Shown in pieces: positions 15,049 through 54,839 of a stretch of 64,000 bases of DNA; within the stretch, counting starts at the first letter, position 1, and each line of letters opens with the position of its first letter. The translations under genes and the position numbers were made by a program. The stretch is from Verrucomicrobiota bacterium (GTDB taxonomy: Bacteria; Verrucomicrobiota; Verrucomicrobiia; Limisphaerales; UBA11358). The stretch is from assembly GCA_049510395.1 (NCBI GenBank), contig JBEKYY010000001.1, forward strand, positions 665 to 64,664, given 5' to 3'. The notes below the pieces were generated by a model, which did no database searches, was not told the origin of the DNA, and worked only from the letters and a program-made list of their open reading frames with translations.

Positions 15049-17271
15049 CTAATACAGGCCCAGCCGCCGCAACAGGAAGTATTCATTAAAAGGATCGTCG
15101 TCCGTGATTCGAACTTTGGGATTGGAATTAAGAAGCTTATTGATGGGCAACCTCCGCGAAAGGACCAATCTCAGATAAGCGGGCAGGTCCCTGATAGAGG
15201 TCCATTCCAATAAATCCTTTTGCGCCGCGGCTGGCATGCACACCGCCAGTTGTTTGGGAGCCGGTATTTTGATGGGATCCATGGAGGCCAATAAATGCAC
15301 TCCGGACCCTGAGATCGATGAGAAGCCGCGCACATATGGAAATGATTCCATGGTGGAGCGAATGACCGCCTGTCCCGTCAACACTTCTCCGCCGGGGAAC
15401 CAGACTTGAACTATTCCGCCGGGTTTCAAATGCTGTTTGACCAAGGCGTAAAAATCCGTGGAATAGAGCAGGCTGGAACCCGCCGCCGTTGGAGGAGGCG
15501 GCGGGTCAATCACGATGACATCGAATTTTTTTGCGGTGCGCTTGAGATAGCGTCTTCCATCATCGATGACGATATGTCCGTTGGGATTATTGAGTACACG
15601 CGCCGCATCTGCGTGGTAAAATCCAAAAGCCTTTATCACACTCGGCACCAGTTCCACCGTCGTCGTGTCAATATCCCAGCTCAAAGCCGAACGATAAGTC
15701 GTACCCATGCCAAAACAAATAACCAGAGCCGATTCAGGTTTTCCTTGATGGGCAACCAGCGGCAAATGAACCATGAATTTGGTGATGGGTGACAGTATGG
15801 TCATGCCAATACCATTGACCAAAAGGTTTTTCTTCCAGCCCTTTTGAAAGGAAATCACCGAGGCGGCATAATCCCGCCGCACGGTCGTGTCCTTCTTGGT
15901 TTTGAACAGCATGCCTTCAAAATCTTCGGAGCCTAACAAAGACCAAACCAGAGCAACCCCGATGGCCAGTCCCAATCCCCAACGCTGCCATTGGAATTGG
16001 GATTTGAAAAAAGGAAACCAAAAAATGAAAAACGGCAAGCCGAGCAGGACCAATGCGTAACGTTCGCTCAAATGAGGCAATAAAACATAACAGGCGAACA
16101 GCGGCCCCAGAATGCATCCCAAAACATTTATCGCATAGGCTTGGCCGGCATCGGTCGGATGGCCGGCCGCATGTTCGTCAATCAGACTCGGCGTCAGATA
16201 CCCCAGCAAAGCGCAAAACGGACAGATGCTGCCCAACAGAATGATTGCGCTGATAACATCAATTGAAACCGCCCACCAATCTGTCGCAACAAATTGCGGA
16301 TTGTTGGCCAGCACTGGTAGAACAGCTGTGATCGCCAGCGCGGAAATCAATTCCCCCGTGGAACTGAGGCGATGCTTCCGAAGATCCCGGCGATACATCC
16401 ATGAACCGAGAAAAGTGGCTCCCAAATAAGTGAAAACAATCAGCGCGAAGGAATAAACCTGCGTTTTCAAAACCGGCGTGAAAGCGCGCGTCCACACAAC
16501 CTCCATCGCCATGGCCACAAACCCCGTCGAAAACAGAATCATTTTTGTCATCCGGCTGTTACGAGCCTGCGGACGCAATAACTCAGCCGACAGGGTCAAA
16601 TCCTCCGGTTTTTCCGAAAGAATGGCGGTTCGATGCTGTTCCCAAGCCAGACAAACGCTGATAAAGGCAATGGTGAAATTGCCTGCGGCAGCCTCCCAAA
16701 GGGTATGCCGGAACCCCGACAGTTCCACCAGAACAATGGCGGTGAGAAAAGTTCCGCTCATGGCGCCCAGCACATTGGCCAGGTAAAGAAAGCTGAAACT
16801 CTTGGTGTTCTGACAATCCCGTTCCCGGACATAAGCCATCATCAAAGGAAAGGTGGCGCCCATGCACACACACCACGGCAGGATGGAAACGGCCAGAACC
16901 AAGGCCGACAGAAACAAATAGCGGAAGGAATCCATCTCGCCGCTGGTCAGCAAAATGTGCTCGCCCAGGGCAAATAATTTGGGAACCGCAACCGCCCCCA
17001 ACCCGATCAAAAATTCCACACCCCCGTAAAAGAGGATGGCCGAACAGCCGGTTTTCTTTACCAATACAGGCACCAAACACCCGCCCGCCCAGGATCCAAC
17101 AGAAAGCCCCAGCATGAAAACTGACAACACCACGGAAAGCACCGGAGTGATGATCCCGAACGAGGCGAAGGCCATTCGCGTCCATACCACCTGATAAACC
17201 AGACTGCAAAAGCCGGACAAAAAAAACAGGGAGAACAAAACCCGGCGCGTGAATTGATTCATGCGGCTCAC
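15049..17271 (-). CDS. Fused multi-TM / spermidine-synthase-like (PABS-fold) protein, tandem copy 1
   Basis: The N-terminal half is hydrophobic and about 450 aa long (FFLSGFCSLVYQVVWTRM...). The C-terminal part has a methyltransferase-fold motif: VICFGMGTTY...VIVIDPPPP. Confidence 0.75.
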   Translation of the reverse strand: MSRMNQFTRRVLFSLFFLSGFCSLVYQVVWTRMAFASFGIITPVLSVVLSVFMLGLSVGSWAGGCLVPVLVKKTGCSAILFYGGVEFLIGLGAVAVPKLFALGEHILLTSGEMDSFRYLFLSALVLAVSILPWCVCMGATFPLMMAYVRERDCQNTKSFSFLYLANVLGAMSGTFLTAIVLVELSGFRHTLWEAAAGNFTIAFISVCLAWEQHRTAILSEKPEDLTLSAELLRPQARNSRMTKMILFSTGFVAMAMEVVWTRAFTPVLKTQVYSFALIVFTYLGATFLGSWMYRRDLRKHRLSSTGELISALAITAVLPVLANNPQFVATDWWAVSIDVISAIILLGSICPFCALLGYLTPSLIDEHAAGHPTDAGQAYAINVLGCILGPLFACYVLLPHLSERYALVLLGLPFFIFWFPFFKSQFQWQRWGLGLAIGVALVWSLLGSEDFEGMLFKTKKDTTVRRDYAASVISFQKGWKKNLLVNGIGMTILSPITKFMVHLPLVAHQGKPESALVICFGMGTTYRSALSWDIDTTTVELVPSVIKAFGFYHADAARVLNNPNGHIVIDDGRRYLKRTAKKFDVIVIDPPPPPTAAGSSLLYSTDFYALVKQHLKPGGIVQVWFPGGEVLTGQAVIRSTMESFPYVRGFSSISGSGVHLLASMDPIKIPAPKQLAVCMPAAAQKDLLEWTSIRDLPAYLRLVLSRRLPINKLLNSNPKVRITDDDPFNEYFLLRRLGLY

Positions 17272-40541: not shown

Positions 40542-42125
40542 TTACTTGGAAGGTTTGGCGTTCCAAATCGCCAGCGTGTCCGTCGAACCTTGCGAGCGGA
40601 CACCATTGTCGGTCAGGATTTCATCGGTGGCGGCGAGCATCTGCGCCCGCGGGAAAATCATCGTTTCGCCGTAACGGGTATTGCATTCGATGGTGATGAA
40701 CTCGTCTTTCGCTTCCCGTAAAATCTCCACGAGATGATTGAGGTTTTTGACCGGGATACCGTTGACCGCTTTTACCACTTGTGCCCTCGGATTGTCGTAG
40801 CCTTTGGCCACCTTGTGCGGGAAAAAAGGTGAAGAGATGATTACCAAACGTTCGCCGGGAAACGCGGGTTGGTCCGACATGCGCGTGACCAGCGGATTGG
40901 CCAAGTTACTCAAACGCGACATGACGGTCCCCGCATATTTTGTCCGCAGATATCCCCCAAGATATTCTTCTGTAGCGGCAGAAAAGACCAATGGCCCGTA
41001 GATAAAATACGAGGGATAAGTGCTGTTCAGCCCGGGAATCAATCGCGGATAATTTGCTGAAACGGGCAGGTTGACTTTCAGTTCTTTGCCGGCACGGACG
41101 ACGGTCAGCGGCACGGTGCCATTGGTGGTGATATGCTGAATTTCATATTCGAAGCGCACGCGCAAGTTGTCTCCCAGCTTAATCATGCCCTGATCATCCA
41201 CTGGAGTGTCGCCGATTTTGGTGATGACATCCCATTCCTTCAGTGGATAAGCCGGATCATCCTTGTAGGGTTTATGAACCACCATGCCCTCAACGGGCAG
41301 GGCCACCTTGAGAAACGCGCGCAAGGCGGGATTCTCCAGCGTTTGCATGGTGTCATACATGGCGGGCTTGCCATCATAATGATCATCGGCGATATCTTGA
41401 AGAAACAAGTCTATCTCCTCGCTGGGAATGATGTAGCCGATGTTCTCGGCCTCATTCAGGCGGCTGAACGTCAACCCGATCATCTTGTCGCCTACAATCG
41501 CCGGGCCGCCGCTGTTGCCGGGATTGATGGCTGCATCAATCTGAATGCGCAAACCGCAAACCGGGTAATTATACGGCGTGAACTCCACACGCGAAACGAT
41601 TCCCTTGGTGATCGAAAGACTGTTGCCTCCTTCCGGAAATCCGTAGGTCAGGACTGTATCCTTGACGCCTGGCAATGTCTTGGCCCGCGCCAGTGGCGGA
41701 TGCGAGTCGAAAAATTTTTCATCATCCAGTTTGAGCACTGCCAGATCAATTCCCGCAGCGATGGCCTCCACCGTGGCGGATATTTTATCTCCGGCCTGAT
41801 TCGCCTGGATTTGCACCTGGCTGGCATAATCCACGACGTGGGCGTTGGTCAATATGCGCTTGCCTTCGATCACCACGCCGCTGCCGGTTTGATCTTCCGG
41901 AGACTGTTTTGTCCACGGCTTGTAAGGATCGGGGTAACGCACCGTGGCGAAAATCTTCACCACCGAATTTTCAATGGTGCCGGACCCGGCGCCGGTGGCG
42001 GCAACATTGGTGATGGTAACAGGCGATGCGGGTTCGGCGGCGTGGAAGCTGAGACATGAGGCGAACAAAGCGGCAACCATGAGCCGGGTTGCCTTGGAGC
42101 CGGCAAAAAATGAATCAAATCCCAT
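40542..42125 (-). CDS. Secreted trypsin-like serine protease (HtrA/S1C-like) with C-terminal PDZ-like region
   Basis: The catalytic triad context is ILTNAHVV, DLAVLKLD and NPGNSGGPA. A signal-like start lies at ATG 42125 (MGFDSFFAGSKATRLMVAALFA). Confidence 0.7.
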   Translation of the reverse strand: MGFDSFFAGSKATRLMVAALFASCLSFHAAEPASPVTITNVAATGAGSGTIENSVVKIFATVRYPDPYKPWTKQSPEDQTGSGVVIEGKRILTNAHVVDYASQVQIQANQAGDKISATVEAIAAGIDLAVLKLDDEKFFDSHPPLARAKTLPGVKDTVLTYGFPEGGNSLSITKGIVSRVEFTPYNYPVCGLRIQIDAAINPGNSGGPAIVGDKMIGLTFSRLNEAENIGYIIPSEEIDLFLQDIADDHYDGKPAMYDTMQTLENPALRAFLKVALPVEGMVVHKPYKDDPAYPLKEWDVITKIGDTPVDDQGMIKLGDNLRVRFEYEIQHITTNGTVPLTVVRAGKELKVNLPVSANYPRLIPGLNSTYPSYFIYGPLVFSAATEEYLGGYLRTKYAGTVMSRLSNLANPLVTRMSDQPAFPGERLVIISSPFFPHKVAKGYDNPRAQVVKAVNGIPVKNLNHLVEILREAKDEFITIECNTRYGETMIFPRAQMLAATDEILTDNGVRSQGSTDTLAIWNAKPSK

Positions 42126-42298
42126 AGATGAAACGATGCTAGATAATGAGCGAGATGCATGCAAAGAAAATGTCGTCCGGGCACGGAGAAAACGGGAGAT
42201 GGTTGGTAAGGTTGAGCGCGGCCTTCGAGGGTGGGTGGCCGGGCGCAAGCATCTACAGCCCCAGCGGGGCGACATATTTGTAGTTGGGCGCTGGAAAT

Positions 42299-42351
42299 GA
42301 ATTCAAGCTCCGTCAGGAGCGGAATATGCCGCCCCGACGGAGCTTGAATTC
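42299..42351. repeat. Perfect 16-bp-stem inverted repeat
   Basis: GAATTCAAGCTCCGTC, a 21-nt loop, then GACGGAGCTTGAATTC, in the intergenic region between two minus-strand genes. Confidence 0.8.
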
Positions 42352-42467
42352 TCGGACAAATCGGATACTTGGAGCTGGCGGATGGTGAAGCGGCGTGAAC
42401 GCCGCGCTCCTTGCCGGCGAACGGGGGCTGTTCCGCTGGTTTAAGATCACTTTTGTGACCTTAAAAT

Positions 42468-44054
42468 TTATTCCTCCACCCGCCGCAGGCGCAAAGCCAT
42501 CCACGGGCGCCCGGGCAGCGCGATGGAGCGGCTTTGCGTGTCGCTGTAGATGTAGTTGTCCTTTTTGCGCAGGGTGTACGCGTCCGGCACCGGGGTGACG
42601 GTCATGTTCCAGGTGTCGAGGATTTCCGCCTTGAATTTCATGCCGTCGACCAGCTTCGGCTTGGGCAGTTCAAAAATCCAATTCGTCGGCTGCTCTCTGC
42701 CGAAATAGATCAGGTAATATTCGCCGGCTTTGCCGCCGATTTGCGGGTATTGCCATTTGTCAATCGGATCAATGCCGCCAGCCGGACCGCCCTCCATGAC
42801 TTGCTTGAGAAACGCCAGGCGCGGCGGGCTTTGACCGCGCAATACGCCGCCCTGCGACAACCAAATGATCTCGTCCTGGGGGCGCTGGTAACATTCGCTG
42901 TGGCCCACGTAAGTGCCCGCAACCGTCCCCTCCCAAAAGCGGTGCACCATTTCTTCCGCCGTGAGGTGCCCCCAGCGTTGCGGGAAGTCGCCCTCATATT
43001 TCACTTCGTCGAACACGACCGGCTTGCGCCAGACATCGCGGTAAAGCACCGCGCGGCCCGCGTCCTCCACCGCCGACCCGTTTTGAATGCTCGCGTGCGT
43101 CACCCATGGGAGGTTGTTGTTGTAAATCAGCATGCTGTGATGAATGGAACGCAGATGCCCGTGCGGATCGCTGCGCTGGATGAGTTGGAAGATGCGGTCC
43201 CAATCCGGCTCGTGCTTTTCGCGCATGAGATCGTATTCGTTGGCCAGCGACCACCAGACGTTGCGATAAGCCGCCAGCCGCGCGACGACGTAACGCACGT
43301 AGCGGTCATCGGTTGCGGCATTCATGCGGTCATAACCCCAGCGGCCTTTGTCGTAGGGATGAAACAGTATCACGTCCGCCTCGATGCCGAGGTCGCGCAA
43401 CTGGCCGACGCGCTTTTCGAGGTGCTGAAAAAACTTCGGATTGAAACGGCTGAAATCCCACTGATTCGTCGGCTGGCCGACAAACGGGTGGCGCGCGGGA
43501 TTGTCGCTCTGGTTCCAGGATTCCGACGTGGGAAAAACGCACATGCGGATTTTGTTGAAGGGGGCGGCGGCAAGCGTCTGGAGTGTCTGCTCCTCCAATT
43601 CGTCATTCTGGTGGGTCCAGCCGTAGCTGGTCGTGCCGAGCTGGCGGAACGGCGTGCCGTCGGCGTAGGCGAAGTGGAAGGTGTTCGTCACATGCACCGG
43701 GCCGTGGTTGTTGGCCGAGGGTGCGGTGACGGTGAACGCGCCGGTTTTCCCATTTAATGGGCGGCGGTTGCTTTTGGTTTTATAGCACCACCCGCCTTGT
43801 TGCTCCGGCATGAAACGAATTCGATAAACGCCATCGCCGTCATAAAAGCCCACCACTTCAACCGAATTGGTGTCTTGCGTGAAGCGGGCGGAGAGGTTTA
43901 CATCGACAAACGGGTTGCCGTTGGTCGGGCCGGCAAGGGCGATTTCAATAATTCCCCATTGCTCGACGGTGGTCCCGGCGGCGGCAACCGTCCGCGCCGG
44001 TGCAACCAGCAACGTGACGCTGGCAACACAGATTGACATGACGAAAGCGCGCAT
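42468..44054 (-). CDS. Secreted putative glycoside hydrolase (DUF5060/DUF4038-type architecture)
   Basis: It has a signal peptide. The N-terminal beta-domain pattern (EIALAGPTNGNPF...GFYDGDGVYRIRFMP) is followed by a TIM-barrel-like region. The family assignment is from memory. Confidence 0.45.
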   Translation of the reverse strand: MRAFVMSICVASVTLLVAPARTVAAAGTTVEQWGIIEIALAGPTNGNPFVDVNLSARFTQDTNSVEVVGFYDGDGVYRIRFMPEQQGGWCYKTKSNRRPLNGKTGAFTVTAPSANNHGPVHVTNTFHFAYADGTPFRQLGTTSYGWTHQNDELEEQTLQTLAAAPFNKIRMCVFPTSESWNQSDNPARHPFVGQPTNQWDFSRFNPKFFQHLEKRVGQLRDLGIEADVILFHPYDKGRWGYDRMNAATDDRYVRYVVARLAAYRNVWWSLANEYDLMREKHEPDWDRIFQLIQRSDPHGHLRSIHHSMLIYNNNLPWVTHASIQNGSAVEDAGRAVLYRDVWRKPVVFDEVKYEGDFPQRWGHLTAEEMVHRFWEGTVAGTYVGHSECYQRPQDEIIWLSQGGVLRGQSPPRLAFLKQVMEGGPAGGIDPIDKWQYPQIGGKAGEYYLIYFGREQPTNWIFELPKPKLVDGMKFKAEILDTWNMTVTPVPDAYTLRKKDNYIYSDTQSRSIALPGRPWMALRLRRVEE

Positions 44055-44207
44055 CGGGCCACGCTATCCAAATTTTTCGCCCCCGCCAAGGCGCGTTGCG
44101 CAATCCTTGGCTGCCCTGCCGCGGATGCATTGACCAGGACACGGTTCCATCACTCCATCTCAAGCCCATTGCTTTGACCGGTTCGGTTTGTGTAACTTCC
44201 CGCCTGG

Positions 44208-45050
44208 ATGAAAACAAAATTGCCTGAAGAATTAACCAGCAACGTGCCGCAAACCAAATGGGGCAAAATCCTCCTCGCCACGCCCGTGGTGATGACGGTC
44301 ATTGCGACCTTGCTCGCCGGACTGGCTTCGAGCGAGATGACCCGCGCCCAATACGACCGCGCCCTCGGCGCGCAACTCCAGTCCAAGGCCGGCGACCAAT
44401 GGGGCTACTTTCAGGCCAAGAAACTCCGGGGCGCGATGCAACGAAACTCATTTGAACTCCTCACCGCCACCACCGACATCCGGCCGATAGACAACCCCGC
44501 GCTGGAGAAAGTTCCCGCCCCGGCCGCCCTCAGCGTGGAAGCAAACGTCGAAGCCGCGCTGCAGGCCATTGAAAAACAAAAACCGGAAACCGAGATCGCC
44601 GGCCTTTTGAAATCAGTGGACGACCAATCCCTGGCGACCGCCCTGCTGGCCGCCAAAGACAACGCCCTCGCGTTCGACACCGCCATCGCTCCGGCCAATC
44701 AAGCCCTCGATCAATTGGAAAAATCCCTGCCCGCCGGCGACAAAGCCGCCGCCCGCGACCTTACCGCCGCCAAAATGCGCTACAACGCCGCGCGTTACGA
44801 CACGGAGGCGAGACTGAACCAATCCATCGCCAACCTCTACGAATTGCAGGTGCGCAAAATCAACATCTCGGCGGAGCGCCATCACAAGCGCAGCGGGAAG
44901 TTTTTCTTCGGCATGCTGGCCGCGCAAGCCGCGGTCATCGTTTCCACCTTCGCCATCGCGGCGCAGAGGCGGAGCTACCTTTGGTTCCTCGCGGCGGCAG
45001 CCGGCCTCGCCGCCGTCATCTTCGCCATCTACGTTTATCTGCGGGTGTAA
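44208..45050 (+). CDS. DUF4337-like membrane protein
   Basis: It has KAGDQWGYFQAKKLRG after the first TM helix and a C-terminal pair of TM helices. Confidence 0.5.
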   Translation: MKTKLPEELTSNVPQTKWGKILLATPVVMTVIATLLAGLASSEMTRAQYDRALGAQLQSKAGDQWGYFQAKKLRGAMQRNSFELLTATTDIRPIDNPALEKVPAPAALSVEANVEAALQAIEKQKPETEIAGLLKSVDDQSLATALLAAKDNALAFDTAIAPANQALDQLEKSLPAGDKAAARDLTAAKMRYNAARYDTEARLNQSIANLYELQVRKINISAERHHKRSGKFFFGMLAAQAAVIVSTFAIAAQRRSYLWFLAAAAGLAAVIFAIYVYLRV

Positions 45051-45326: not shown

Positions 45327-47690
45327 ATGGATTCCGTTGAAAAAGTATTAAAGGCCGTGCTGGATTTCCACGCAGGCGACCCGCAGTTGCTGGCCGTTCA
45401 ACTCAAAGCATCGCCAGCTTCGGTTCAACGCTGGGTGACTGGCGCAGCCAAGCCCCGTCCCGCCTATGAGGCAAAGCTCCGAAAAATTTATTCCGAACTG
45501 GTAAGCCAACCGTCCGAATTAAAAGAGACCCCGCCAGCCTACCGTGTCACCCCGCATCATCCGATGATAACGGAGGCAGTTGACGCAACGCTCCGGTCTA
45601 TTCGAGAGATTCTGCATAAGCGCGCTCATCTGTCATCGAGAAGCCAGGCACTGGATGAACTGTCCAAACTTCTCTTTGCTCACGTCGAAGGTCTGCGCCG
45701 TGGTAACGGGGGCATTTCCCGGCAGGCCGTTGCTCGAAACGGCCAGAGTCTGGCCGCAGCTTTGAAAGAGCATGTGGACGAAACGATTCGTCAAAGCCTG
45801 CCGGAATCACTCGCGCACTCTGTGGATGCGCGGGACTTTGAATTGAAGCTCAAGCCACAGGAGAACGAGTTGGCGGCGGAGTTGGTTGAGTGTTTTGAAA
45901 CATTACAACGGCAAACCTCCTCATTTAGTTTTTCCGGCTTCGACATTCTCAACGAAGTGTTTGGAAAATTCTTGGCGGATTCGTTTATTGACGAGAAAGA
46001 GCTTGGCCAATATCTGACACCGCCTGAAGTGGTCAGATTCATGATTGGTCTGGCGATTCATGGACTGTCCGACTCGGAACTGGAGATGCTTTGTGATCCC
46101 AAGCGGTGTGCCGATTTCGGTTTGATTCTCGATCCATCGTGCGGGGTGGCTTCATTCCTAGCCGAAACAGTTCACCAGCTTCAGGAGCGAATGAAGGAAC
46201 GCATACAAGACGCCAAGCAGCGCGAAGCTTGGCTCAATGCTCTGCTTGGGCGCGTGGTGGTCGGGATAGATAAAAGCGAGAGAATGGTTCGGCTGGCGCT
46301 GACCAACATTGCCATGTTCGGTTTTCCGATGGCCAGGCTTCACCTCGCCAACTCGCTCGCCAGAAACGGAGCGGATGCCAAACTTACGGACAGTTTGGCC
46401 GGAAAGGTCAGGTTGATTCTAACGAATCCCCCCTTCGGCGCGTCTTTTCAAGGCAACGACTTGGTGAAATACAAGATTGCAACCCAGTGGTCACGGCGTT
46501 TCCCCGGACGTTTGGATTCCGAAATTTTATTCATGGAGCGTTACCTCGACTGGCTTGCTCCTGGGGGGCAACTCATCGCAATCGTGCCCGACAGCATTTT
46601 AACGAACAAGGCCGTGTTTGAGGAACTGCGCCGGGGAATTGCGAACGACATTGATTTATGCACGGTCGTTTCGTTGCCTAGCGTGACTTTTGGTGTTGCA
46701 GGCACAAACACAAAAACCTCCATTCTTCATCTGCGCAAGAAATCGAAAGCAAACGGTTCATCACAATGCACGGCGTTCGCCATCTGCCAAGACATCGGAT
46801 TTACAGTTGCGACGAAGGCAAACCAGCGCATGAAGATTGTTCAGGGCGAGGGTGATCTCCCTCGCATCCTCAATGAGATTACCGAGCCGCCGCCCAAATC
46901 GAATTTGGTAAGGTGGCTGGAGGATGCCCATGTTCTTGAGCGGTGGGATGCTCAACACCACGCTTCGCTGTCAGCCGAAGTTGAGCAGCGTCTCAACCTC
47001 AAGACCGACGAGGATCTTTATGTTTCGGACGTTGCCGAGTTGGTGGACGAGCGCGCCGACCCGCGCCGATGGGGAGACAAACAATTCAATTATATCGAAA
47101 TCTCTGACATTGATTCACAGACTTGTGTTGTTTACTCCAACAGTATCGAAACTTCAGTCGCACCGAGTCGGGCGAGAAAGATTGTGAAAGCAGGTGACGT
47201 GCTGGTTTCAACGGTCCGACCAGAGCGCGGGACAGTCGGGATCGTTGGGCCGCATCAAGATGGCTCGGTTTGCACGACCGGGCTGGCTGTCTTGCGGCCA
47301 ACGAAGATTAACGCACTGACTTTGGCCTGTCTCTTGAAGACCGAATTTGTGATTGCTCAACTTATGCGCAACAACGTCGGCATCGCGTACCCCGCTATTG
47401 ACGAGTCCTGTCTTTTGGGGGTGCTGCTGCCGGCTCGGCGGGAGGATTTGCCGAAACTTCGGCGGCAAGCCGCAGAGATTTCAGAGAACGAGGAACGTCT
47501 TCATACCATCCGAAAGCGCTTCAAGGAATCTATTGAGAGTGCCGGGGCTGCGTGGCGGCAGATGAACTTCAAGCCAGCTTCCAAACCTCATCCAGCGATC
47601 CAAACCACGTCCCGTCGCCAATCTCGCACGGTGGATTCTGGTTCACATGATCAGGAAACTTTTCAGCTCGCGGCAAGCCATAGCGCTTGA
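45327..47690 (+). CDS. N6-adenine DNA methyltransferase with N-terminal HTH and C-terminal HsdS-like target-recognition region
   Basis: It has an HTH-like segment LAVQLKASPASVQRWVTG, motif I LDPSCGVASFL and motif IV LTNPPFGASF. The TRD-like segment is GDVLVSTVRPERGTVGIV...TGLAVLRP. Confidence 0.8.
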   Translation: MDSVEKVLKAVLDFHAGDPQLLAVQLKASPASVQRWVTGAAKPRPAYEAKLRKIYSELVSQPSELKETPPAYRVTPHHPMITEAVDATLRSIREILHKRAHLSSRSQALDELSKLLFAHVEGLRRGNGGISRQAVARNGQSLAAALKEHVDETIRQSLPESLAHSVDARDFELKLKPQENELAAELVECFETLQRQTSSFSFSGFDILNEVFGKFLADSFIDEKELGQYLTPPEVVRFMIGLAIHGLSDSELEMLCDPKRCADFGLILDPSCGVASFLAETVHQLQERMKERIQDAKQREAWLNALLGRVVVGIDKSERMVRLALTNIAMFGFPMARLHLANSLARNGADAKLTDSLAGKVRLILTNPPFGASFQGNDLVKYKIATQWSRRFPGRLDSEILFMERYLDWLAPGGQLIAIVPDSILTNKAVFEELRRGIANDIDLCTVVSLPSVTFGVAGTNTKTSILHLRKKSKANGSSQCTAFAICQDIGFTVATKANQRMKIVQGEGDLPRILNEITEPPPKSNLVRWLEDAHVLERWDAQHHASLSAEVEQRLNLKTDEDLYVSDVAELVDERADPRRWGDKQFNYIEISDIDSQTCVVYSNSIETSVAPSRARKIVKAGDVLVSTVRPERGTVGIVGPHQDGSVCTTGLAVLRPTKINALTLACLLKTEFVIAQLMRNNVGIAYPAIDESCLLGVLLPARREDLPKLRRQAAEISENEERLHTIRKRFKESIESAGAAWRQMNFKPASKPHPAIQTTSRRQSRTVDSGSHDQETFQLAASHSA

Positions 47691-48447
47691 CGTCTTTAGG
47701 AACTGAACGGGCGAACGCAAATTCGCGGATGTTGCCGCTACGCAAGAAAAGACTGACCGCAAAGAAGTCTTGGGTGGCAAATTTGCAACTGCTCGTTGGA
47801 TAACCATCTGTCAGGCTGTGAATCAAGCGCGCGAATTTGGTGTTCGTTCCCCAAAGTGATTTAGCTTCGAGCTTTTTAATGACGCCTGACTTCTCCACTT
47901 CGAAATCAAAATAAGCGTAGCCGCCGATATGCTTAGCCATGTCTTCGGGCATCCGGCGTACTTTGTAACCGGCCTTCTTCAAAACTTGAACAAGCGAATA
48001 CTCGACCAAGCCGCTGAGAACTTTTGCCGATGCCCCATACTGGTCAACTTCCAAGAAATCGTTTTGTGAGAGACCCGCCAGCGCTTTCTCAAGCTCTGCT
48101 TTCTTTGAAGCTGAACCTGTGTAAATTTCTCCTTCGGCAACGCCTGCTCGCTTATCCACAGAAAGAATCCGACCTTTGGCAATTTCCCGCCAGACACCGC
48201 CTTCCTCGTAGGATTGTGGAACAAATTTGCCCGTTCGACCGGGAACAGCCAAGTCTTCACACTCCTTGTCGATACGGATCTTGAAGCTGGCGCGGTAGTG
48301 GCTTTGGCCGGAAACCTTGATGATGGTTTTGTCGAGTGTTCTAATCGGAATAAGAACCGGACAGAGAATGCTCTCAAGTGCCTGCGGCGTTACATCACCA
48401 TAGCGCTTTGTCAGCCGCTCAAAGAGAGCCTTGTAATCAACTTTCAT
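47569..48447 (-). CDS. Candidate restriction endonuclease (PD-(D/E)xK-like), convergent with the methyltransferase
   Basis: A possible catalytic core is LVEYS...YFDFEVEKSGVIKKLEAKS (E...D-x12-E-x-K). The gene is AT-rich and its 3' end overlaps the MTase gene by 122 nt. Confidence 0.45.
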   Translation of the reverse strand: MKVDYKALFERLTKRYGDVTPQALESILCPVLIPIRTLDKTIIKVSGQSHYRASFKIRIDKECEDLAVPGRTGKFVPQSYEEGGVWREIAKGRILSVDKRAGVAEGEIYTGSASKKAELEKALAGLSQNDFLEVDQYGASAKVLSGLVEYSLVQVLKKAGYKVRRMPEDMAKHIGGYAYFDFEVEKSGVIKKLEAKSLWGTNTKFARLIHSLTDGYPTSSCKFATQDFFAVSLFLRSGNIREFAFARSVPKDVKRYGLPRAEKFPDHVNQNPPCEIGDGTWFGSLDEVWKLA

Positions 48448-48500
48448 AAATCAGTTCTTCGCCCCCGCTATGCCCTTCCATTTTATGCCTTTCACCCAGA

Positions 48501-48699
48501 GGTGGTCACAGTTTGTGACCACCTTCAAACACTTTAAGGTCGCAAATTGCGACCTTAACCCGAACCGGTCACAGATTGTGACCGGTCCATTTGATATGCC
48601 AATTTGGCATTTCAAAAACTCTGCCCACTTGCTGCCACGATCTTGAGGTCACAAATTGTTACCAGTTCCACATCCTTCTTGAAATCATAAACTGTGATT
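48501..48699. repeat. Array of six palindromes with 3-nt centres
   Basis: The six sites are 48501-48523 GGTGGTCACAgttTGTGACCACC, 48536-48556 AAGGTCGCAaatTGCGACCTT, 48564-48586 ACCGGTCACAgatTGTGACCGGT, 48596-48610 ATGCCAattTGGCAT, 48647-48663 GGTCACAaatTGTTACC and 48683-48699 AATCATAaacTGTGATT. Confidence 0.9.
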
Positions 48700-48783
48700 G
48701 CGGACGAGTTCGGCAGCGGCGTTCACCAACGCCCCGGGCGGTTGGATTCGGCGATCGTGGAGTTCATGGGCCGTCCTCTAGTT

Positions 48784-49317
48784 TCAATCCTCCTCGCGGA
48801 ACTTCTTCACGGCAAACCGCTGGATGCGCACCGGCTCGAACTCGCCAATGCCACCCTTGCACCGCGCAGTGGTGAGTTGTTGCTCGACGGTTTTGATGCC
48901 TTTGACGTCGGCCAGCAATATCCCGCAACGATTATCTTCGGTGGTCAGCACGACGCCGTAACGCCGCGGGTCCAACTCCGTCGTCGAGGTGACTTCCTCC
49001 GGCGGGTGAACCACGCTGACCTCGAAGTGCAAATGCTCCAATTCGCGGGGGCCAACCGGCGCAAAACGTCCATCACGGAAGGCGGCATCGCGCGCGACGT
49101 GCCACGTTTCCTCAGCGGTGTTCGCAAAGTGTGGTGTCAACGTGCCGACGCAGCCGCGCAATTTCTGTCGCGGACCGCGGATGGTAACGAACACGCCGTG
49201 CCGCTCGCCCAGGATGCCCTCCGCCGCGATTGCCGGTTTTCCCGCATCGCCGCGGAACGCGGCTTCGATCGAGCGCCGCGCGATCTGCGAAAGCGCCTTT
49301 CCGGTTTCCTGCTCCAT
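48784..49317 (-). CDS. amrA: AMMECR1-domain protein (AmmeMemoRadiSam system protein A)
   Basis: It has the LRGCVGT motif and the RDGRF segment. I prefer the ATG at 49317 (MEQETGKALSQIARRSIEAAF) to the ORF-track start at 49365. Confidence 0.75.
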   Translation of the reverse strand: MEQETGKALSQIARRSIEAAFRGDAGKPAIAAEGILGERHGVFVTIRGPRQKLRGCVGTLTPHFANTAEETWHVARDAAFRDGRFAPVGPRELEHLHFEVSVVHPPEEVTSTTELDPRRYGVVLTTEDNRCGILLADVKGIKTVEQQLTTARCKGGIGEFEPVRIQRFAVKKFREED

Positions 49318-49346
49318 AATTTCAGTTCTTCGCCGAGGCAAGAGGC

Positions 49347-49458
49347 GGTTGTAATTTGCTACCACCTCAAACGTTTAAGTTCGCAAATTGTTACCAGTTC
49401 CGCGTTCATCCCGAAATCACAATTTGCAATTTCAAGGTAGTCACAGATTGTGACGACC
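49347..49458. repeat. Second, colinear palindrome array
   Basis: The four sites are 49347-49363 GGTTGTAattTGCTACC, 49379-49395 GTTCGCAaatTGTTACC, 49415-49431 AATCACAattTGCAATT and 49436-49458 GGTAGTCACAgatTGTGACGACC. The spacer blocks (acctcaaacgtttaa, agttccgcgttcatcccga) are homologous to those of the 48501-48699 array. Confidence 0.85.
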
Positions 49459-49500
49459 TTTTCTCAGCTAAGCGCGATAGACCAGTCCGGCTTGGATCGC

Positions 49501-49623
49501 CAACCCTGGGCTGATGGATTTGACTTGAGCCGTTTGGGAAACGGCGAAAGGAATTTGGCAAAGCCAAAGGCCTGCCAAGGCCGAGCGAGCGGGCGCGAGT
49601 GAGTCCATCCCGTTGGGATTCAC
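49501..49623. repeat. CAACCCTGGGCTGATGGATTTGA ... CCCGTTGGGATTC repeat
   Basis: The blocks at 49501-49523 and 49605-49623 are shared with 51323-51363. Confidence 0.7.
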
Positions 49624-49654
49624 GGACGAAGCGTAACGCAGTGAAACGAAAGGG

Positions 49655-51094
49655 CTACGGTCTAAACAAACGAAAGAAAGCGTTTCCAACTGGCGAAGCC
49701 ATGAACAAATGGTTCGTGCCGTCATCTTGAATGCCATTTGTCACATTGCTCCAGTTTGATGTTTGGAGGCCATTCGTATTCTCCTGAAGCGCGCATCTTG
49801 GCGCGGGAGAAGGCCAGGAGACGGCGACTTGATTCGTCGCTGTTAGCCGAATCTGGAGCAATGGCGGCGGGATACTGAACAAATATGCCGCACCTGTGTT
49901 CATGGCGCCCGTATTGTCGCCAGGAGAACCTGCCAGCACCAAATCGTCGCCAAAGACGGCTAATGAGCTGCCGAACCCAAGATATAGATTGAGATATATC
50001 GCCGTGGGGTTGGTAAAAGTAGCCAGCGTGTTGCCGTTCGTGCTGAACAAAAATACCGTCCCGGAGCGGGTTTGGACATTGTCATCGGGGGCGCCGATGA
50101 GCACTTGATTGGTGTCCACCGCGGCGATGGAGGAGCCAAACTGCGCGCTCGGATCCGCATTCGGATCGGTGAAAGAAGCTAGCACCGCAGCGTTGGTATT
50201 GAATAAATAAACGGTTCCCGATGACGCACTGATAAGCACCCGGTCGTTACCCAACGCGACCATGGACCACCCATAATTCTCATAGTTTGGCGCATTTGAA
50301 TCGGTAAAATTCATCAGCAAAGTGCCATTGGTATTAAACAAATAAGCCCCACCGGGATTCGAGGTATAAGGGTCGGTCTGCGGCGCGCCCACCAGCAATT
50401 TGTCGTTGAAGACCACTGCAACCGAGTGACCAAACAGATTATCGCCCGGAATCGGATTGGTGATCGTGGTTAACAGGATCCCGTTCGTGCTGAACAAAAA
50501 CGCCGCGCCGCTGTTGGGGATGCTCAACTGATAGCCTTGTGCCCCGATCAGTACCCGGTCCCGACCCAGCGCCGCCACGGAACTGCCAAACTGGAGTACC
50601 GACGACGGAGTGGGATTGGTGAAAGTCGTCAGCAAGTTTGCATTGGTGTCAAACAGGTAGGCCGCACCGCCGCCGTCCGCAAACCGCGCGCCGATGATCA
50701 CGCGATTGTTGCCCATTGCACTCATGGCCTCGCCGAACTGCGCGCCCATCTTCGGGACCGGATTGGTGAAGCTCAACAGCAATGTGCCGTTCGTATTAAA
50801 CAGATAGGCGGCTCCCGCGTTCTCGGCTCCCGTGTCATCGGCGGGCGCGCCGACGAGCACCCGGTCATTCCCCACCGTCGCCACCGACCAGCCGAATTCA
50901 GCAAATGCGCTGGGGACAGGGTTGGTGAAAGCCGTGATTAATATTCCCGTTTGCGCGAGGCAGACAAACGGAGCGAGCAGCCCAACCACGTCCAAAATTT
51001 TAACTAAGCGGAATTTCACGGCGTCAGGAATAACAGTAACCCCACACGGCACCCCAGACAATCCTGAATTGCGCCACTGATGGCGAAGAACCAT
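49655..51094 (-). CDS. Secreted FG-GAP-like beta-propeller repeat protein
   Basis: There are at least 7 repeats of about 45-50 aa of the type FG.SVA..G.DRVLIGAP....GAAYLF.TNG.LL.TFTNP. The C-terminus carries a W...LQ...FFRL module. The start is uncertain. Confidence 0.65.
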   Translation of the reverse strand: MVLRHQWRNSGLSGVPCGVTVIPDAVKFRLVKILDVVGLLAPFVCLAQTGILITAFTNPVPSAFAEFGWSVATVGNDRVLVGAPADDTGAENAGAAYLFNTNGTLLLSFTNPVPKMGAQFGEAMSAMGNNRVIIGARFADGGGAAYLFDTNANLLTTFTNPTPSSVLQFGSSVAALGRDRVLIGAQGYQLSIPNSGAAFLFSTNGILLTTITNPIPGDNLFGHSVAVVFNDKLLVGAPQTDPYTSNPGGAYLFNTNGTLLMNFTDSNAPNYENYGWSMVALGNDRVLISASSGTVYLFNTNAAVLASFTDPNADPSAQFGSSIAAVDTNQVLIGAPDDNVQTRSGTVFLFSTNGNTLATFTNPTAIYLNLYLGFGSSLAVFGDDLVLAGSPGDNTGAMNTGAAYLFSIPPPLLQIRLTATNQVAVSWPSPAPRCALQENTNGLQTSNWSNVTNGIQDDGTNHLFMASPVGNAFFRLFRP

Positions 51095-51138
51095 TTTTTT
51101 GTGAGAATGGCGACACGCCTAGATGCGGGCGCAACGGC

Positions 51139-51363
51139 CAACCGCAACGCGGTTGCAACCTTCAGCCCGGCGTTGCCGCGCAGCGGCTACGCTGGGTGAA
51201 CTGGCAAAATGAAAAACAACTCTGAAGGAGTTGTGTCAGGTTGCGGCGGATTGGATGCAACGTTTTCAGCGTTGATAAATTGGTTGGCTGGTTTCCTAGG
51301 GTAGCCCCGAAAGCATTCGGAGCAACCCTAGGCTGATGGATTTGAATCTCGTTGGGATTCGAG
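51139..51363. repeat. Composite noncoding repeat region
   Basis: It contains a 7-3-7 palindrome CAACCGCaacGCGGTTG (51139-51155), a CAACTCtgaagGAGTTG hairpin, and then CAACCCTAGGCTGATGGATTTGA..CGTTGGGATTC (51323-51363), which matches 49501-49623. Confidence 0.65.
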
Positions 51364-51381
51364 CACGCCGAGCACGACAGA

Positions 51382-53193
51382 TCACTCTCGCTCGAAATCA
51401 ATTTGGCCATCGAATTCAAGAATAGCCTTCGTATTGAGTCCCCCTCCACATTCGCGCTGTTCCAACGTGTCGAACGCTCGAACGACTCTGTCTTTGATAA
51501 GCGTGAAACAATCTTTTGAACTGATCTCCAGAGCTGGCTCCATATAAAGAGCATAGCGATTAAACGCCACTAATCCCTTAACCTTTTCACATTGAAATTC
51601 AGTGACGCGTGCCTCGCCCCGCAAAGCTTGGCTGAGCGCTTCTTTGAATTTCTCTTTGTCTATCCCGAAGGGGTCAACACTGGATTTTTTTCTGAACCGT
51701 GAGATTTCAATCACCCGCCGCTTGTGGTTAATTGGGACGCCGTTCACATGGTCTGGAAGAGCGACGAGCAACTCTTCGGGAGGTTGTGCGTAAAGATGTC
51801 CGAACAACTTTTCTATGATTGCCCAAACTTCTACAGTGGCTTCTTCTCCAGGCAAACGTGCAAGTGTGCCTGTCTTTTCCAGAGCAGCAGCAATAGGCCG
51901 CTGACCGAATTCTCGCCAATCCATTACGAGATGGAACACGCCCAAGTGTGGATTGGTTGCGTGCATCGTGATTACTCCGGAGACCCATCCGGGTTCAGTT
52001 TCAGCTTCTGGAGTTTGCATGAAAACAAATCCGTCGCTCGCCACAGCCCGATGCACGGCTTCTGCCTCGGCAGCGAGGCATCGCCAAGGCAACATCTGTG
52101 AATGAATGTGTTTCTTGAATTGTTCGGCTCTAAGGAAGTCATCCGGCGTTGGGGAAACGCGCGCGAAAAACTGAACAGCTAGGTCCAGTTCGGGGCACAC
52201 GTAAAAATGGCTATCCCAACTCAAATGCCGTCGCGATACCTCCCTGAGAAAGCCTTCAGGGGGCGCAAATGCGTATTGTCGGTCCTCGACGAGTTTCTCC
52301 CCAATTTTCGACATGCACTGCCAGTGGGTCAATTCACCGGCATATGGGGTTTGGTGTTTCGGATGTTTGTCGCGGCTTGTCAACTCAATTGGACTGAAAA
52401 TAAATGAAAGCCATTCGCCGGGTAGCAACTCAAAACCCGATTTTGACACGACATCTCTTGCAGACTTGATGAATGCCTCCAAGTCTTGGTTCTGGGTTTG
52501 GACATTAAAGCCAGAGATGAATCGCGGCTGAAGCGTTTTGAGCACGGTCATCCAACTTGGAAGCCAGTTAAGATTGGTTTGGCAACGTTCCAAACTCATC
52601 TCGTCTCGTTCGCGTGATTCGTTAAAAGCAACGAAAGGTGAAGCGACAGATTCACTGCGATAACCTGGCATCAACACCGGATAGACATCGCAAGCAAGCG
52701 AAAAATCATCAAGCCGCAGAAGCTTTGCGTAAAACTTCTCAATGATCCCACTGAGAAGCTGACGAGAATTTGCGAGGTCAGATTCGCGTGACAGACGGAA
52801 CGAAATGGATTCTTGACCCAAACGGCTATAATCGGCACGAAGCTGGGGCATAGGATCACACCAGTATGCACGACCACTCTCAACATCGTAAACGGCAATG
52901 AAGATCGGAAAATACTCTTCGACCCATTGTCGGCAGATAGAAGCTTTGATTGTAACGCTCAGGTAACCGTCATCCGTTTCAGTGACTTCGTCCCCGAGAG
53001 ACTTTCCCTTGACCTGACACCGGAAATAAAGATTTGTGCGTTGGCCTTCCGCGAAAATGTTGGACTCAACATCTTCCCCGTAATCGCTTTGAACAATATC
53101 GGCGGTCCATCCCCATCGTTTGAAGATTAGGGCTACACTGGTTTGGGCAATGTCTCCGGTGACGTGCTCCTTTGGTCTTTGCGGTTTGTCCAT
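51382..53193 (-). CDS. DUF4365-type (restriction-endonuclease-like) N-terminal domain protein with a C-terminal region of about 450 aa of unknown function
   Basis: The N-terminal pattern is GDIAQTSVALIFKRWGW..DIVQSDYGEDVE.......LYFRCQVKGK....PIFIAVYDVESGRAYW. I prefer the ATG at 53193 (MDKPQRPKEH). The gene is AT-rich. Confidence 0.6.
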   Translation of the reverse strand: MDKPQRPKEHVTGDIAQTSVALIFKRWGWTADIVQSDYGEDVESNIFAEGQRTNLYFRCQVKGKSLGDEVTETDDGYLSVTIKASICRQWVEEYFPIFIAVYDVESGRAYWCDPMPQLRADYSRLGQESISFRLSRESDLANSRQLLSGIIEKFYAKLLRLDDFSLACDVYPVLMPGYRSESVASPFVAFNESRERDEMSLERCQTNLNWLPSWMTVLKTLQPRFISGFNVQTQNQDLEAFIKSARDVVSKSGFELLPGEWLSFIFSPIELTSRDKHPKHQTPYAGELTHWQCMSKIGEKLVEDRQYAFAPPEGFLREVSRRHLSWDSHFYVCPELDLAVQFFARVSPTPDDFLRAEQFKKHIHSQMLPWRCLAAEAEAVHRAVASDGFVFMQTPEAETEPGWVSGVITMHATNPHLGVFHLVMDWREFGQRPIAAALEKTGTLARLPGEEATVEVWAIIEKLFGHLYAQPPEELLVALPDHVNGVPINHKRRVIEISRFRKKSSVDPFGIDKEKFKEALSQALRGEARVTEFQCEKVKGLVAFNRYALYMEPALEISSKDCFTLIKDRVVRAFDTLEQRECGGGLNTKAILEFDGQIDFERE

Positions 53194-53212
53194 CGGAGTT
53201 TGTCGCTTGGCT

Positions 53213-53295
53213 TCAATTCTTCGCCCCCGCGAGTTCCTCTTCGAAATCCACAATCTCTTTGATTTGTGTCAGGAACCGGCGGCCTTGGCAATTGC
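53213..53295 (-). pseudogene. Duplicated remnant of the carB(N) 3' end
   Basis: The minus-strand translation ...[22 protein letters not shown] matches the genuine end ...[23 protein letters not shown] at 18/22 residues. About 80 nt align with 53334-53415. Confidence 0.8.
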
Positions 53296-53333
53296 GGAAT
53301 GCAGATTTCGGATTGTGGATTGAAATCGTCATT

Positions 53334-54839
<1,506 letters not shown>

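Follow-up and report, generated by a model that had tools for sequence, protein, structure and literature searches.

Why should the last codons of one gene recur in front of other, unrelated genes? This question is raised by a 64,000-nucleotide (nt) stretch of the genome of a Verrucomicrobiota bacterium, a Pedosphaera-like member of the Limisphaerales (contig JBEKYY010000001.1, positions 665 to 64,664; hereafter, the whole stretch is called the window). In it, the end of carB(N), the N-terminal half of a split carbamoyl-phosphate synthetase large-subunit gene, is repeated three times within the island of genes that follows it. We compared the window with related loci (L numbers below) from the order Pedosphaerales/Limisphaerales, which comprises soil and peat Verrucomicrobia. 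The comparison suggests that the carB(N) tail is probably a hyper-variable insertion point in Pedosphaerales, at which units have accreted one after another.

The gene itself lies at 53334-54839 on the minus strand, encodes 501 amino acids (aa), and ends with a TGA at 53334-53336. The stretch that was copied downstream, the resident tail, is 53334-53399 (minus strand). Pfam recognizes CPSase_L_D1, CPSase_L_D2, and, of D3, positions 2-55 of 80 only, meaning that the product has the pre-ATP-grasp and ATP-grasp domains and terminates inside the oligomerization domain, after the first 55 of its 80 positions. All 120 of the closest CarB(N) homologues, Pedosphaera parvula Ellin514 included, have the same end point, and on this comparison the split of carB is ancestral. 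The most frequent ending among those homologues is AGAKN, so the allele seen in the supposed remnants is a normal working tail of other lineages.

By their sequence, all three blocks in the island are copies of the last codons of carB(N), and all lie on the carB strand. The first, R2 (53213-53281, minus strand), is a full displaced copy of 66-69 nt with the AGAKN* allele. Over 66 nt it shares 76% identity with the resident tail, and nhmmer matches it to a profile of carB(N) ends with E values of 4e-18 and 3e-14. Its stop is 19 nt from the ATG (53191-53193) of a DUF4365 gene. A preliminary description, made from the window alone, had correctly noticed this second copy but put it about 40 nt from the resident stop and extended it to 53295, whereas the gap is 52-55 nt and the copy reaches 53281. 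R2 forms part of a 39-aa open reading frame (ORF; 53213-53332, minus strand, a Joint Genome Institute gene call), in which a short non-carB leader precedes the copy and which begins 1 nt past the carB stop (TGAAATG). Elsewhere, ORFs matching it have 25-27 aa and begin MNSQ.. A plain 121-nt tandem duplication was considered as the origin of R2 and rejected, since the sequences after the resident tail and after R2 are unrelated.

The other two blocks are stubs. The 13-nt b2 (49322-49334, minus strand; an exact GGCGAAGAACTGA, with the sequence TCAGTTCTTCGCC) is separated by 4 nt (AATT) from the amrA ATG at 49315-49317. The 18-nt b3 (48451-48468, minus strand; TCAGTTCTTCGCCCCCGC, read as GCGGGGGCGAAGAACTGA) is separated by 3 nt (TTT) from the ATG of a restriction gene at 48445-48447. 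As first reported, b3 matches the end of R2 (53213-53230) at 17 of 18 positions; it also matches the commonest carB(N) tail, AGAKN*, at all 18 (18/18), and this 18-mer terminates many carB(N) genes and copies in metagenomes. In the 64 kb, GGCGAAGAAYTGA occurs exactly three times, each time on the carB strand. Allowing one mismatch raises the count to 4, where 0.23 would be expected, and none of 100 shuffles gave as many. Coordinates, strands, and start-codon distances in the preliminary description were correct on direct check, and its reading of the blocks as carB(N) tail remnants is supported both by the nhmmer match of R2 (E 4e-18) and by the orthology of b2 to a 66-nt copy, shown below. 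A remnant does not stand before every island gene, however; the FG-GAP gene has none.

The architecture is shared by relatives, whose cargo differs (L092, L093, L094, L097, L103, L125, L137, L138, L152, L155, L157, and L171). This bears out the earlier proposal of repeated insertion at the carB(N) 3′ end. Loci with CarB(N) 91-97% identical all differ downstream of the stop, and the sequence directly after the resident stop differs in 37/37 distinct loci. A profile of carB(N) ends was used to detect extra same-strand copies downstream. About half of the loci have such displaced tails, with up to four per locus, and the genes between them include toxin-antitoxin pairs, restriction genes, ORF6N genes, and other defense-like genes. 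Seven of the 37 loci have an ATG exactly +3 nt from the carB(N) stop, compared with about 0.6 expected, and it opens several unrelated genes. This stop-NNN-ATG type of junction is also found at the window stubs, as TGA TTT ATG at b3 and TGA AATT ATG at b2; TGA TTT ATG is present in L171 as well. There, the b3 junction TGATTTATG precedes an Mrr-type gene, for which homology with the restriction gene of the window was considered and rejected on comparison.

The metagenome loci derive from a contig scan for GCGGGGGCGAAGAAYTGA, which returned 80 loci. About 45 of these are carB(N) ends or copies, and the other 35 are chance matches, mostly in GC-rich unrelated organisms. Because loci were chosen by the exact 18-mer, the sample is biased toward intact ends. 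A contig search with CarB(N) gave three close relatives only, none of them syntenic with the window on either side.

The arrangements vary from locus to locus. In L155 and L125, carB is followed by a PIN-like gene, a 93-aa gene, and a copy of the longer of two common classes, R1 (about 129 nt; the shorter class, R2, has about 66 nt). In L155, this places a 766-nt toxin-antitoxin-like unit between 129-nt tail repeats that are 94.6% identical. The order in L152 is carB, a PIN-like gene with a 92-aa gene, and R2; in L171 it is carB, Phd-RelE, R1, and the Mrr-type endonuclease; and in L138 R2 comes after carB. L157 carries four copies in the order R1, R2, 1.7 kb, R1, R2, and L103 carries three, two of which bracket a single DUF2142 gene. 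Copies of about 124 nt are found 5.8 kb downstream in L093 and 2.1 kb downstream in L094, and in L097 a 124-nt copy, 38 nt, and a 66-nt copy follow one another 9.5 kb from carB(N). An ORF6N gene stands immediately before R2 in L137 and L191, and in L137 the resident carB(N) end is upstream on the same contig.

At their 3′ edges, copies always break off at the stop codon (plus or minus 3-4 nt). Their 5′ edges are more scattered: measured from the stop, they fall at 57, 66, 72, 90-96, and 129 nt, and the farthest at about 230 nt. Without a 5′ edge common to the copies, a single defined attachment site, as proposed in the preliminary description, is no more than a possibility. Where copies and resident tails differ, they do so mainly at third codon positions (10/16 for R2 of the window, 6/10, and 14/22), and frames are intact. 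This bias indicates that most of the divergence arose while the copies were working coding sequence. The copies would thus once have served as working gene ends in other lineages, which fits tails brought in from other alleles and not decay in situ.

The two stubs can be traced to longer copies. L092, with CarB(N) 97% identical to that of the window, has a 66-nt tail copy (15328-15393) directly before amrA. Despite this close relationship, the two loci have nothing in common between carB and the amrA copy; the homology around amrA begins exactly at the b2 block and ends at the amrA stop. As it begins at the block, b2 is the orthologue of a full 66-nt copy. amrA sits behind a tail copy in L091/L092 too. 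Upstream of b3, region A (48469-48700, minus strand) is identified by alignment as the upstream or operator region of an ORF6N gene, with four strong palindromes and a promoter-like site. Of the ORF6N gene itself, only the start codon (48479-48481) and the 10 nt behind it, three codons and one base, are left. Region B (49335-49460, minus strand), upstream of b2, is a decayed region of the same kind with degenerate palindromes, identified by alignment with L137 and L191; parts of it also match other Pedosphaerales loci. Region A aligns with the upstream region of L137/L191 through the ORF6N ATG plus 10 nt and then jumps to the 18-nt b3, and region B aligns similarly before jumping to the 13-nt b2. 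From these jumps, each stub appears to be what an internal deletion left of an ORF6N-leader-R2 module. Consequently, b2 and b3 are probably leftovers of two full tail copies, and the deletions would also have removed the ORF6N genes.

This history also bears on the palindromes GGTCACAnnnTGTGACC, GGTCGCAAATTGCGACC, and ATGCCAAATTGGCAT, which within the 64 kb are restricted to the island (10 matches against 1.3 expected, all inside 48505-49454). Their motif, GGTCRCAnnnTGYGACC, has 7-bp arms and a 3-bp centre, and the matches are clustered upstream of the stubs. They had been described as cassette ends. However, L137 and L191 have an intact ORF6N-domain gene (Pfam ORF6N E 1e-28 for the L191 gene) that is preceded by these motifs and has one more within it, which argues that the palindromes are operator-like and coding motifs of ORF6N genes. 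Their position inside or upstream of intact ORF6N genes rules them out as attC or dif sites, and they are not the repetitive extragenic palindromes (REPs) of the neighboring Y1 transposases, as those REPtrons have another REP (GGAGCGCGGCGTTCACGCCGCTTCA). The same palindromic DNA (TCACAAATTGTGA, TCGCAAATTGCGA, and TGCCAAATTGGCA) is found both in front of ORF6N genes and within their coding sequence, at 48504-48663 and 49349-49455 of the window, at 380-690 of L137, at 1-265 of L191, and at 11600-11720 of L100. Inside ORF6N genes, the palindromes encode distinct conserved peptides (RSQIVT, VANCDH, and RCQIGT) in different frames. This suggests that the DNA palindrome itself is the conserved element, perhaps as the predicted binding site of the ORF6N protein.

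A further relic lies behind amrA (48784-49317, minus strand; 177 aa; AMMECR1 family, Pfam E 3e-34). Directly past its stop there are 62 nt (48708-48769, minus strand) of the 5′ end of amrS, the radical-SAM partner of amrA, 88.7% identical to the start of the radical-SAM gene at 16310-16371 of L100. In L100, an amrB/amrA fusion gene and the neighboring amrS are both intact. The relic indicates that amrA is the remnant of an amrA-amrS operon and not, as had been supposed, a free 0.9-kb one-gene cassette, and a block of ORF6N, R2, and restriction-modification genes appears to have been joined into that operon.

We consider it probable, then, that the island grew by serial accretion at the carB(N) tail; this judgment covers the accretion and neither of the mechanisms that could drive it. 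Incoming DNA would recombine within the last 60-230 nt of carB(N) and bring its own intact tail, which would take over as the functional end of carB(N). The previous tail would move downstream together with everything behind it, and repeated rounds would build arrays of tail, unit, tail, unit. The host could achieve this by two routes. DNA carrying a tail could recombine through RecA, anchored by homology in carB and completed by an illegitimate second join, or circles excised between tail repeats could re-integrate. The variable 5′ edges, the allelic tails, and the absence of integrases favor host recombination of tail-bearing DNA, which we put forward tentatively as the agent, at somewhat below an even chance. 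The sequences show directly the copies, their wide occurrence, the variable cargo, the sharp boundary at the stop codon, and the mostly synonymous, allelic divergence of the copies; both the order of events and the role of host functions are what we infer from the arrays. An integrase that acts in trans is still a candidate on account of the two recurrent copy lengths, the exact break at the stop codon, and the +3 ATG, and a dedicated recombinase is a possible, if doubtful, agent.

Several points weigh against accretion or against its proposed agents. The contig of the window is also found in peat metagenomes, and all 22 contigs of the species have the same order. This gives no sign of current mobility, and unit content does not vary among them, a lack that the preliminary description had named as counting against its reading. 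A housekeeping gene, for an EngB-type GTPase, lies between tail copies in L092, L093, and L097, so that the arrays do not consist of accessory cassettes alone and ordinary rearrangement has a share in them. In the commonest classes (129 and 66 nt), the non-carB leaders are conserved from locus to locus; a few old events may account for many of the copies, which would then not mark one event each. Illegitimate joining would not lead one to expect an ATG at exactly +3 in front of unrelated genes. An empty-site search with the flanks of L155, L152, L138, and L125 and of the window units found no unoccupied counterpart, and among the fetched loci there is no empty and occupied pair with identical flanks, hence no single insertion event was caught. 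Integrases that are divergent, or encoded elsewhere in the genome, could also be at work.

This last point leads to classical site-specific integration, in which an attP would mimic the carB(N) tail, the tyrosine or serine recombinase would be encoded elsewhere or lost, and units without a recombinase would be mobilized in trans. Much of the architecture is what such integration would leave: the cargo lies between same-strand direct repeats of the gene 3′ end, the gene regains a working end, two copy lengths (about 129 and 66 nt) recur, the boundary at the stop codon is sharp, and the 18-nt stub equals the canonical tail. A preprint on tycheposons describes successive integrations that displace older elements and leave partial tRNAs (bioRxiv 10.1101/2020.12.28.424599). 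Only one recombinase-like sequence was found near any tail copy, a partial tyrosine recombinase at a distance of 2.5 kb in L161. However, no recombinase domain was found by Pfam in the island proteins of the window, in agreement with the preliminary description, and none of about 15 related arrays has an integrase within it by Pfam annotation, although very divergent enzymes could escape. XerD and gamma-delta resolvase queries gave nothing inside the arrays in tblastn searches, while the control recovered a 55% XerD in an unrelated locus. In viral contigs, searches with the tail peptide, with the 18-mer, and with the palindrome in extended form gave chance matches only, with no carB similarity and no palindrome arrays. 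The units are also very small (0.65-0.8 kb), and the wide spread of 5′ edges is at odds with a fixed site. We therefore regard site-specific integration as rather doubtful. The Y1 transposases that adjoin carB in L093, L094, and L103 are of the REPtron type, with their own REPs, 3 nt past the stop, and do not explain the duplicated coding ends. In L094 (11507-12760) and L093 (7322-8490), the REPtron-like unit is inserted 3 nt past the carB(N) stop and consists of an opposite-strand Y1 transposase gene flanked by inverted REPs (GGAGCGCGGCGTTCACGCCGCTTCA).

Could the copies instead be kept for a function of their own? In both common classes, a short conserved non-carB leader provides an in-frame ATG, giving ORFs of 25-27 aa for R2 and 46-49 aa for R1. 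As small genes or translation pads (46-aa R1 and 27-aa R2 ORFs encoding the CarB(N) C-terminal helix), they would couple promoterless genes to carB or act on CarB assembly, and the arrays would have arisen by duplication. R2 keeps its ATG, conserved leader (CTCAACC ATG AAC TCT CAA ...), and open frame in nine loci, with leader indels in multiples of three. The ATG of R1, which starts ATGAAC.. or ATGAAA.., overlaps the upstream stop as ATGA in L155/L125 and L157; the next ATG is often 3-4 nt past the stop of the copy; and the window copy belongs to an ORF that begins 1 nt after the carB stop. But many copies are dead, with stops or frameshifts in L092, L093, L094, L103, and L193 and truncation to 13-18 nt in the window. 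The third-position excess among variable sites of R2 is mild (6, 8, and 11 by codon position), and the leader has none (3, 3, and 3). Selecting loci by the exact 18-mer also favors intact ends. As an explanation of the arrays, function of this kind is unlikely.

It is also improbable, and we think somewhat more so, that one or two ancient partial duplications of the tail were followed by ordinary rearrangement and insertion in a permissive intergenic region, the tail having no special role. In favor of this, the region is populated by IS110, DDE, and Y1/REP elements and by generic intergenic repeats, and HtrA and other backbone genes are shuffled between relatives. The copies of L094 and L097 share a left-flank gene, and the R1 and R2 leaders are conserved across loci. 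What speaks against so few events is that genomes have several copies, with R1-R2 pairs repeated (window, L103, and L157); that the L155 repeats are still 94.6% identical around a single small unit; that divergence between copy and resident tail is biased to synonymous changes; and that the sequence changes exactly at the stop codon in 37/37 loci.

A last reading, that the short blocks arose by chance or belong to a general motif of ribosome binding or start context, is almost certainly wrong. In its favor, they are purine-rich and stand 3-4 nt from start codons, and MAFFT aligns the ORF6N 5′ region with them (ORF6N 5′ coding sequence against b3 is about 11/18 by manual count). Against it, the exact 13-mer occurs three times on one strand against an expectation of 0.23 even with one mismatch, b3 equals the canonical tail at every position, and b2 is orthologous to a 66-nt copy. 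In about 250 kb of Pedosphaerales-type loci, the motif is confined to carB ends and copies, apart from a few scattered matches in or beside unrelated genes, and the 35 non-carB metagenome matches are mostly from unrelated GC-rich organisms. The motif is not a translation-start signal of the whole genome; away from carB ends and their copies, it turns up by chance only.

If serial accretion at the carB(N) tail is correct, the closest described behavior would be that of tycheposons at tRNA genes. In Prochlorococcus, tycheposons and other tRNA-targeting islands insert one after another at a single site, so that earlier arrivals come to lie farther out and pieces of the target 3′ end are strewn through the island; the cargo often consists of defense or niche genes, and satellite-like members exist (bioRxiv 10.1101/2020.12.28.424599). 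The preliminary description knew of no system that uses a carB 3′ end in this way; that claim does not extend to the general class, serial 3′-end insertion leaving partial copies, which has been described for tRNA-targeting elements. The carB arrays resemble tycheposons in outward displacement and in partial copies of the target gene. They differ in that the target is the end of a protein-coding gene and not a tRNA, that about 15 arrays yielded no tyrosine recombinase, that units often hold a single gene, that copy lengths vary, and that some copies persist as small ORFs led by an ATG.

Among elements that target the ends of protein-coding genes, integrative and conjugative elements and cis-mobilizable elements (CIMEs) accrete at the fda 3′ end in Streptococcus thermophilus, Salmonella genomic island 1 (SGI1) inserts at the last 18 bp of trmE, and other islands insert at guaA. 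These systems have identified integrases and defined att cores, their recombinase-less units can be mobilized in trans, and they form tandem arrays. As with CIMEs and SGI1, same-strand direct repeats of the target 3′ end flank the insert and the gene is restored (window, L155, L171, L097, L103, and L157); unlike in CIMEs, SGI1, and tycheposon islands, no recombinase was found in the carB arrays. The carB copies have a constant 3′ edge at the stop codon and variable 5′ edges, with two common lengths. Orphan C-terminal modules of rhs and cdiA are 3′ fragments displaced by homologous recombination, each with a partner gene and without a dedicated recombinase. In architecture only, the carB arrays are similar, since the displaced 3′ fragments keep conserved coding sequence and are followed by partner genes. 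However, the toxin tips of rhs and cdiA are variable, whereas the carB tails are conserved and it is the unrelated gene behind them that varies.

In integron arrays, small genes, often lacking a promoter, are lined up behind a fixed entry point and mostly face the same way; many cassettes are of the toxin-antitoxin kind, and a short ORF in attI1 improves cassette translation. The carB arrays likewise have small genes, mostly in one orientation, at a fixed entry, and a short ORF next to the following start could aid translation. Unlike in integrons, the repeat unit is coding sequence of the neighboring gene and there is no IntI. No attC cores (RYYYAAC/GTTRRRY) were seen by eye in the intergenic regions, in which no pattern search was run. 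Xer/dif modules (integrative mobile elements exploiting Xer, and pdif) have sites of 28-31 bp, with 11-bp arms around a 6-8-bp centre, whereas the repeats flanking carB units are carB coding sequence and the palindromes have 7-bp arms and a 3-bp centre. The preliminary analogy with integron or dif-module cassettes is therefore not upheld: there is no integrase, and the palindromes belong to ORF6N genes. In REP systems with a REP-associated tyrosine transposase (REPtrons), palindromic REPs are dispersed in the genome and flank the Y1 transposase gene, unlike the window palindromes, which are confined to the island.

Hot spots of defense genes are usually attributed to integrases that target tRNA genes. 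The hot spot described here extends across an order of abundant soil and peat Verrucomicrobia and is situated where an essential, split metabolic gene stops; tail copies mark it, and no recombinase is in sight. If host recombination alone maintains it, this would be a simple route by which defense arrays are built and exchanged, and copies of gene tails would be a sequence signature for finding such arrays elsewhere. A bolder version, which we regard as fairly unlikely, is a cassette system free of recombinases. In it, translated micro-ORFs of 27 and 46 aa made from CarB(N)-tail copies would act both as portable homology arms and as translation-coupling pads, promoterless defense and toxin-antitoxin genes would be swapped by host recombination alone and expressed by read-on from the essential gene, and the entry point would be the scar of a mobile-element insertion that split carB.

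The idea of a scar comes from a sister order. Two Chthoniobacterales-type metagenome-assembled genomes, L014 (6072-10166) and L015 (5011-9030), have full-length CarB proteins of 1364 and 1339 aa with an in-frame insert of about 330 aa, which contains a Y1_Tnp/IS200-like domain (Pfam E 3e-7). The insert is positioned at the exact end point of Pedosphaerales CarB(N), at profile position 52-56 of 80 in the oligomerization domain, and is 35% identical (E 3e-31) to the product of the Y1 transposase gene just past the carB(N) stop in L094. This strengthens the case for the CarB position as an old target of mobile elements and bears on the origin of the carB split.

Along the carB strand, the order of the island is carB(N), the 39-aa ORF with R2, the DUF4365 and FG-GAP genes, the decayed ORF6N upstream region with b2, amrA with the amrS relic, the ORF6N upstream region with b3, and a restriction and methylase pair. 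The DUF4365-domain protein (51382-53193, minus strand; 603 aa; Pfam E 1e-9) has a restriction-endonuclease-like N-terminus (PADLOC Aga_REase E 1e-5) and is probably defense-like cargo. The FG-GAP repeat protein (49655-51094, minus strand; 479 aa; Pfam FG-GAP_2) has internal repeats D1-D6. The putative restriction endonuclease (47569-48447, minus strand; 292 aa) has no Pfam or PADLOC match and is assigned from its pairing with the methylase gene. The latter (45327-47690, plus strand; 787 aa) encodes an N6-adenine DNA methyltransferase with a specificity domain (Pfam N6_Mtase; PADLOC methyltransferase and specificity models). The two genes are convergent, with a 122-nt 3′ overlap (47569-47690), and by synteny the pair is absent from the close relative L092.

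A promoter and terminator scan gave counts at chance level, with one promoter-like site inside the ORF6N operator region upstream of the restriction gene, and Rfam had no match in 47500-54000 at E up to 1. A generic intergenic repeat, CAACCCTrGGCTGATGGATTTGA, is present after the FG-GAP and DUF4365 genes (49501-49523 and 51323-51345), and GC-rich hairpin units are found at 51130-51190 and 51295-51365, also after the FG-GAP and DUF4365 genes. The essential EngB-type GTPase gene that is downstream of carB(N) in most relatives is missing from 42-60 kb of the window, the part that was searched. Backbone genes after the island have been shuffled between the window (40542-45050), L092 (16234-20743), and L096 (14805-19010). 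For example, HtrA comes before the genes for DUF4337 and an apiosidase-like protein in L092 and L096, and after them in the window.

Two further observations concern tail-like sequences at other genes. The identical 18-mer closes three diverged genes of the esterase family, in L170, L178, and L198; all three end ...WQGYPIAGAKN*, although their upstream codons differ synonymously. Esterase genes are also found near carB(N) in L093, L097, and L101. The shared ending may have been picked out by the search pattern itself, or a tail stub may have become fused to another gene. At 12640-12700 of L100, on the strand opposite to carB, a low-GC and apparently frameshifted gene is preceded by GAAACTGAAACTGAAATTATGGA, which has 14 nt (ACTGAAATTATGGA) in common with the b2-amrA junction of the window and may be an inverted tail stub or a chance match.

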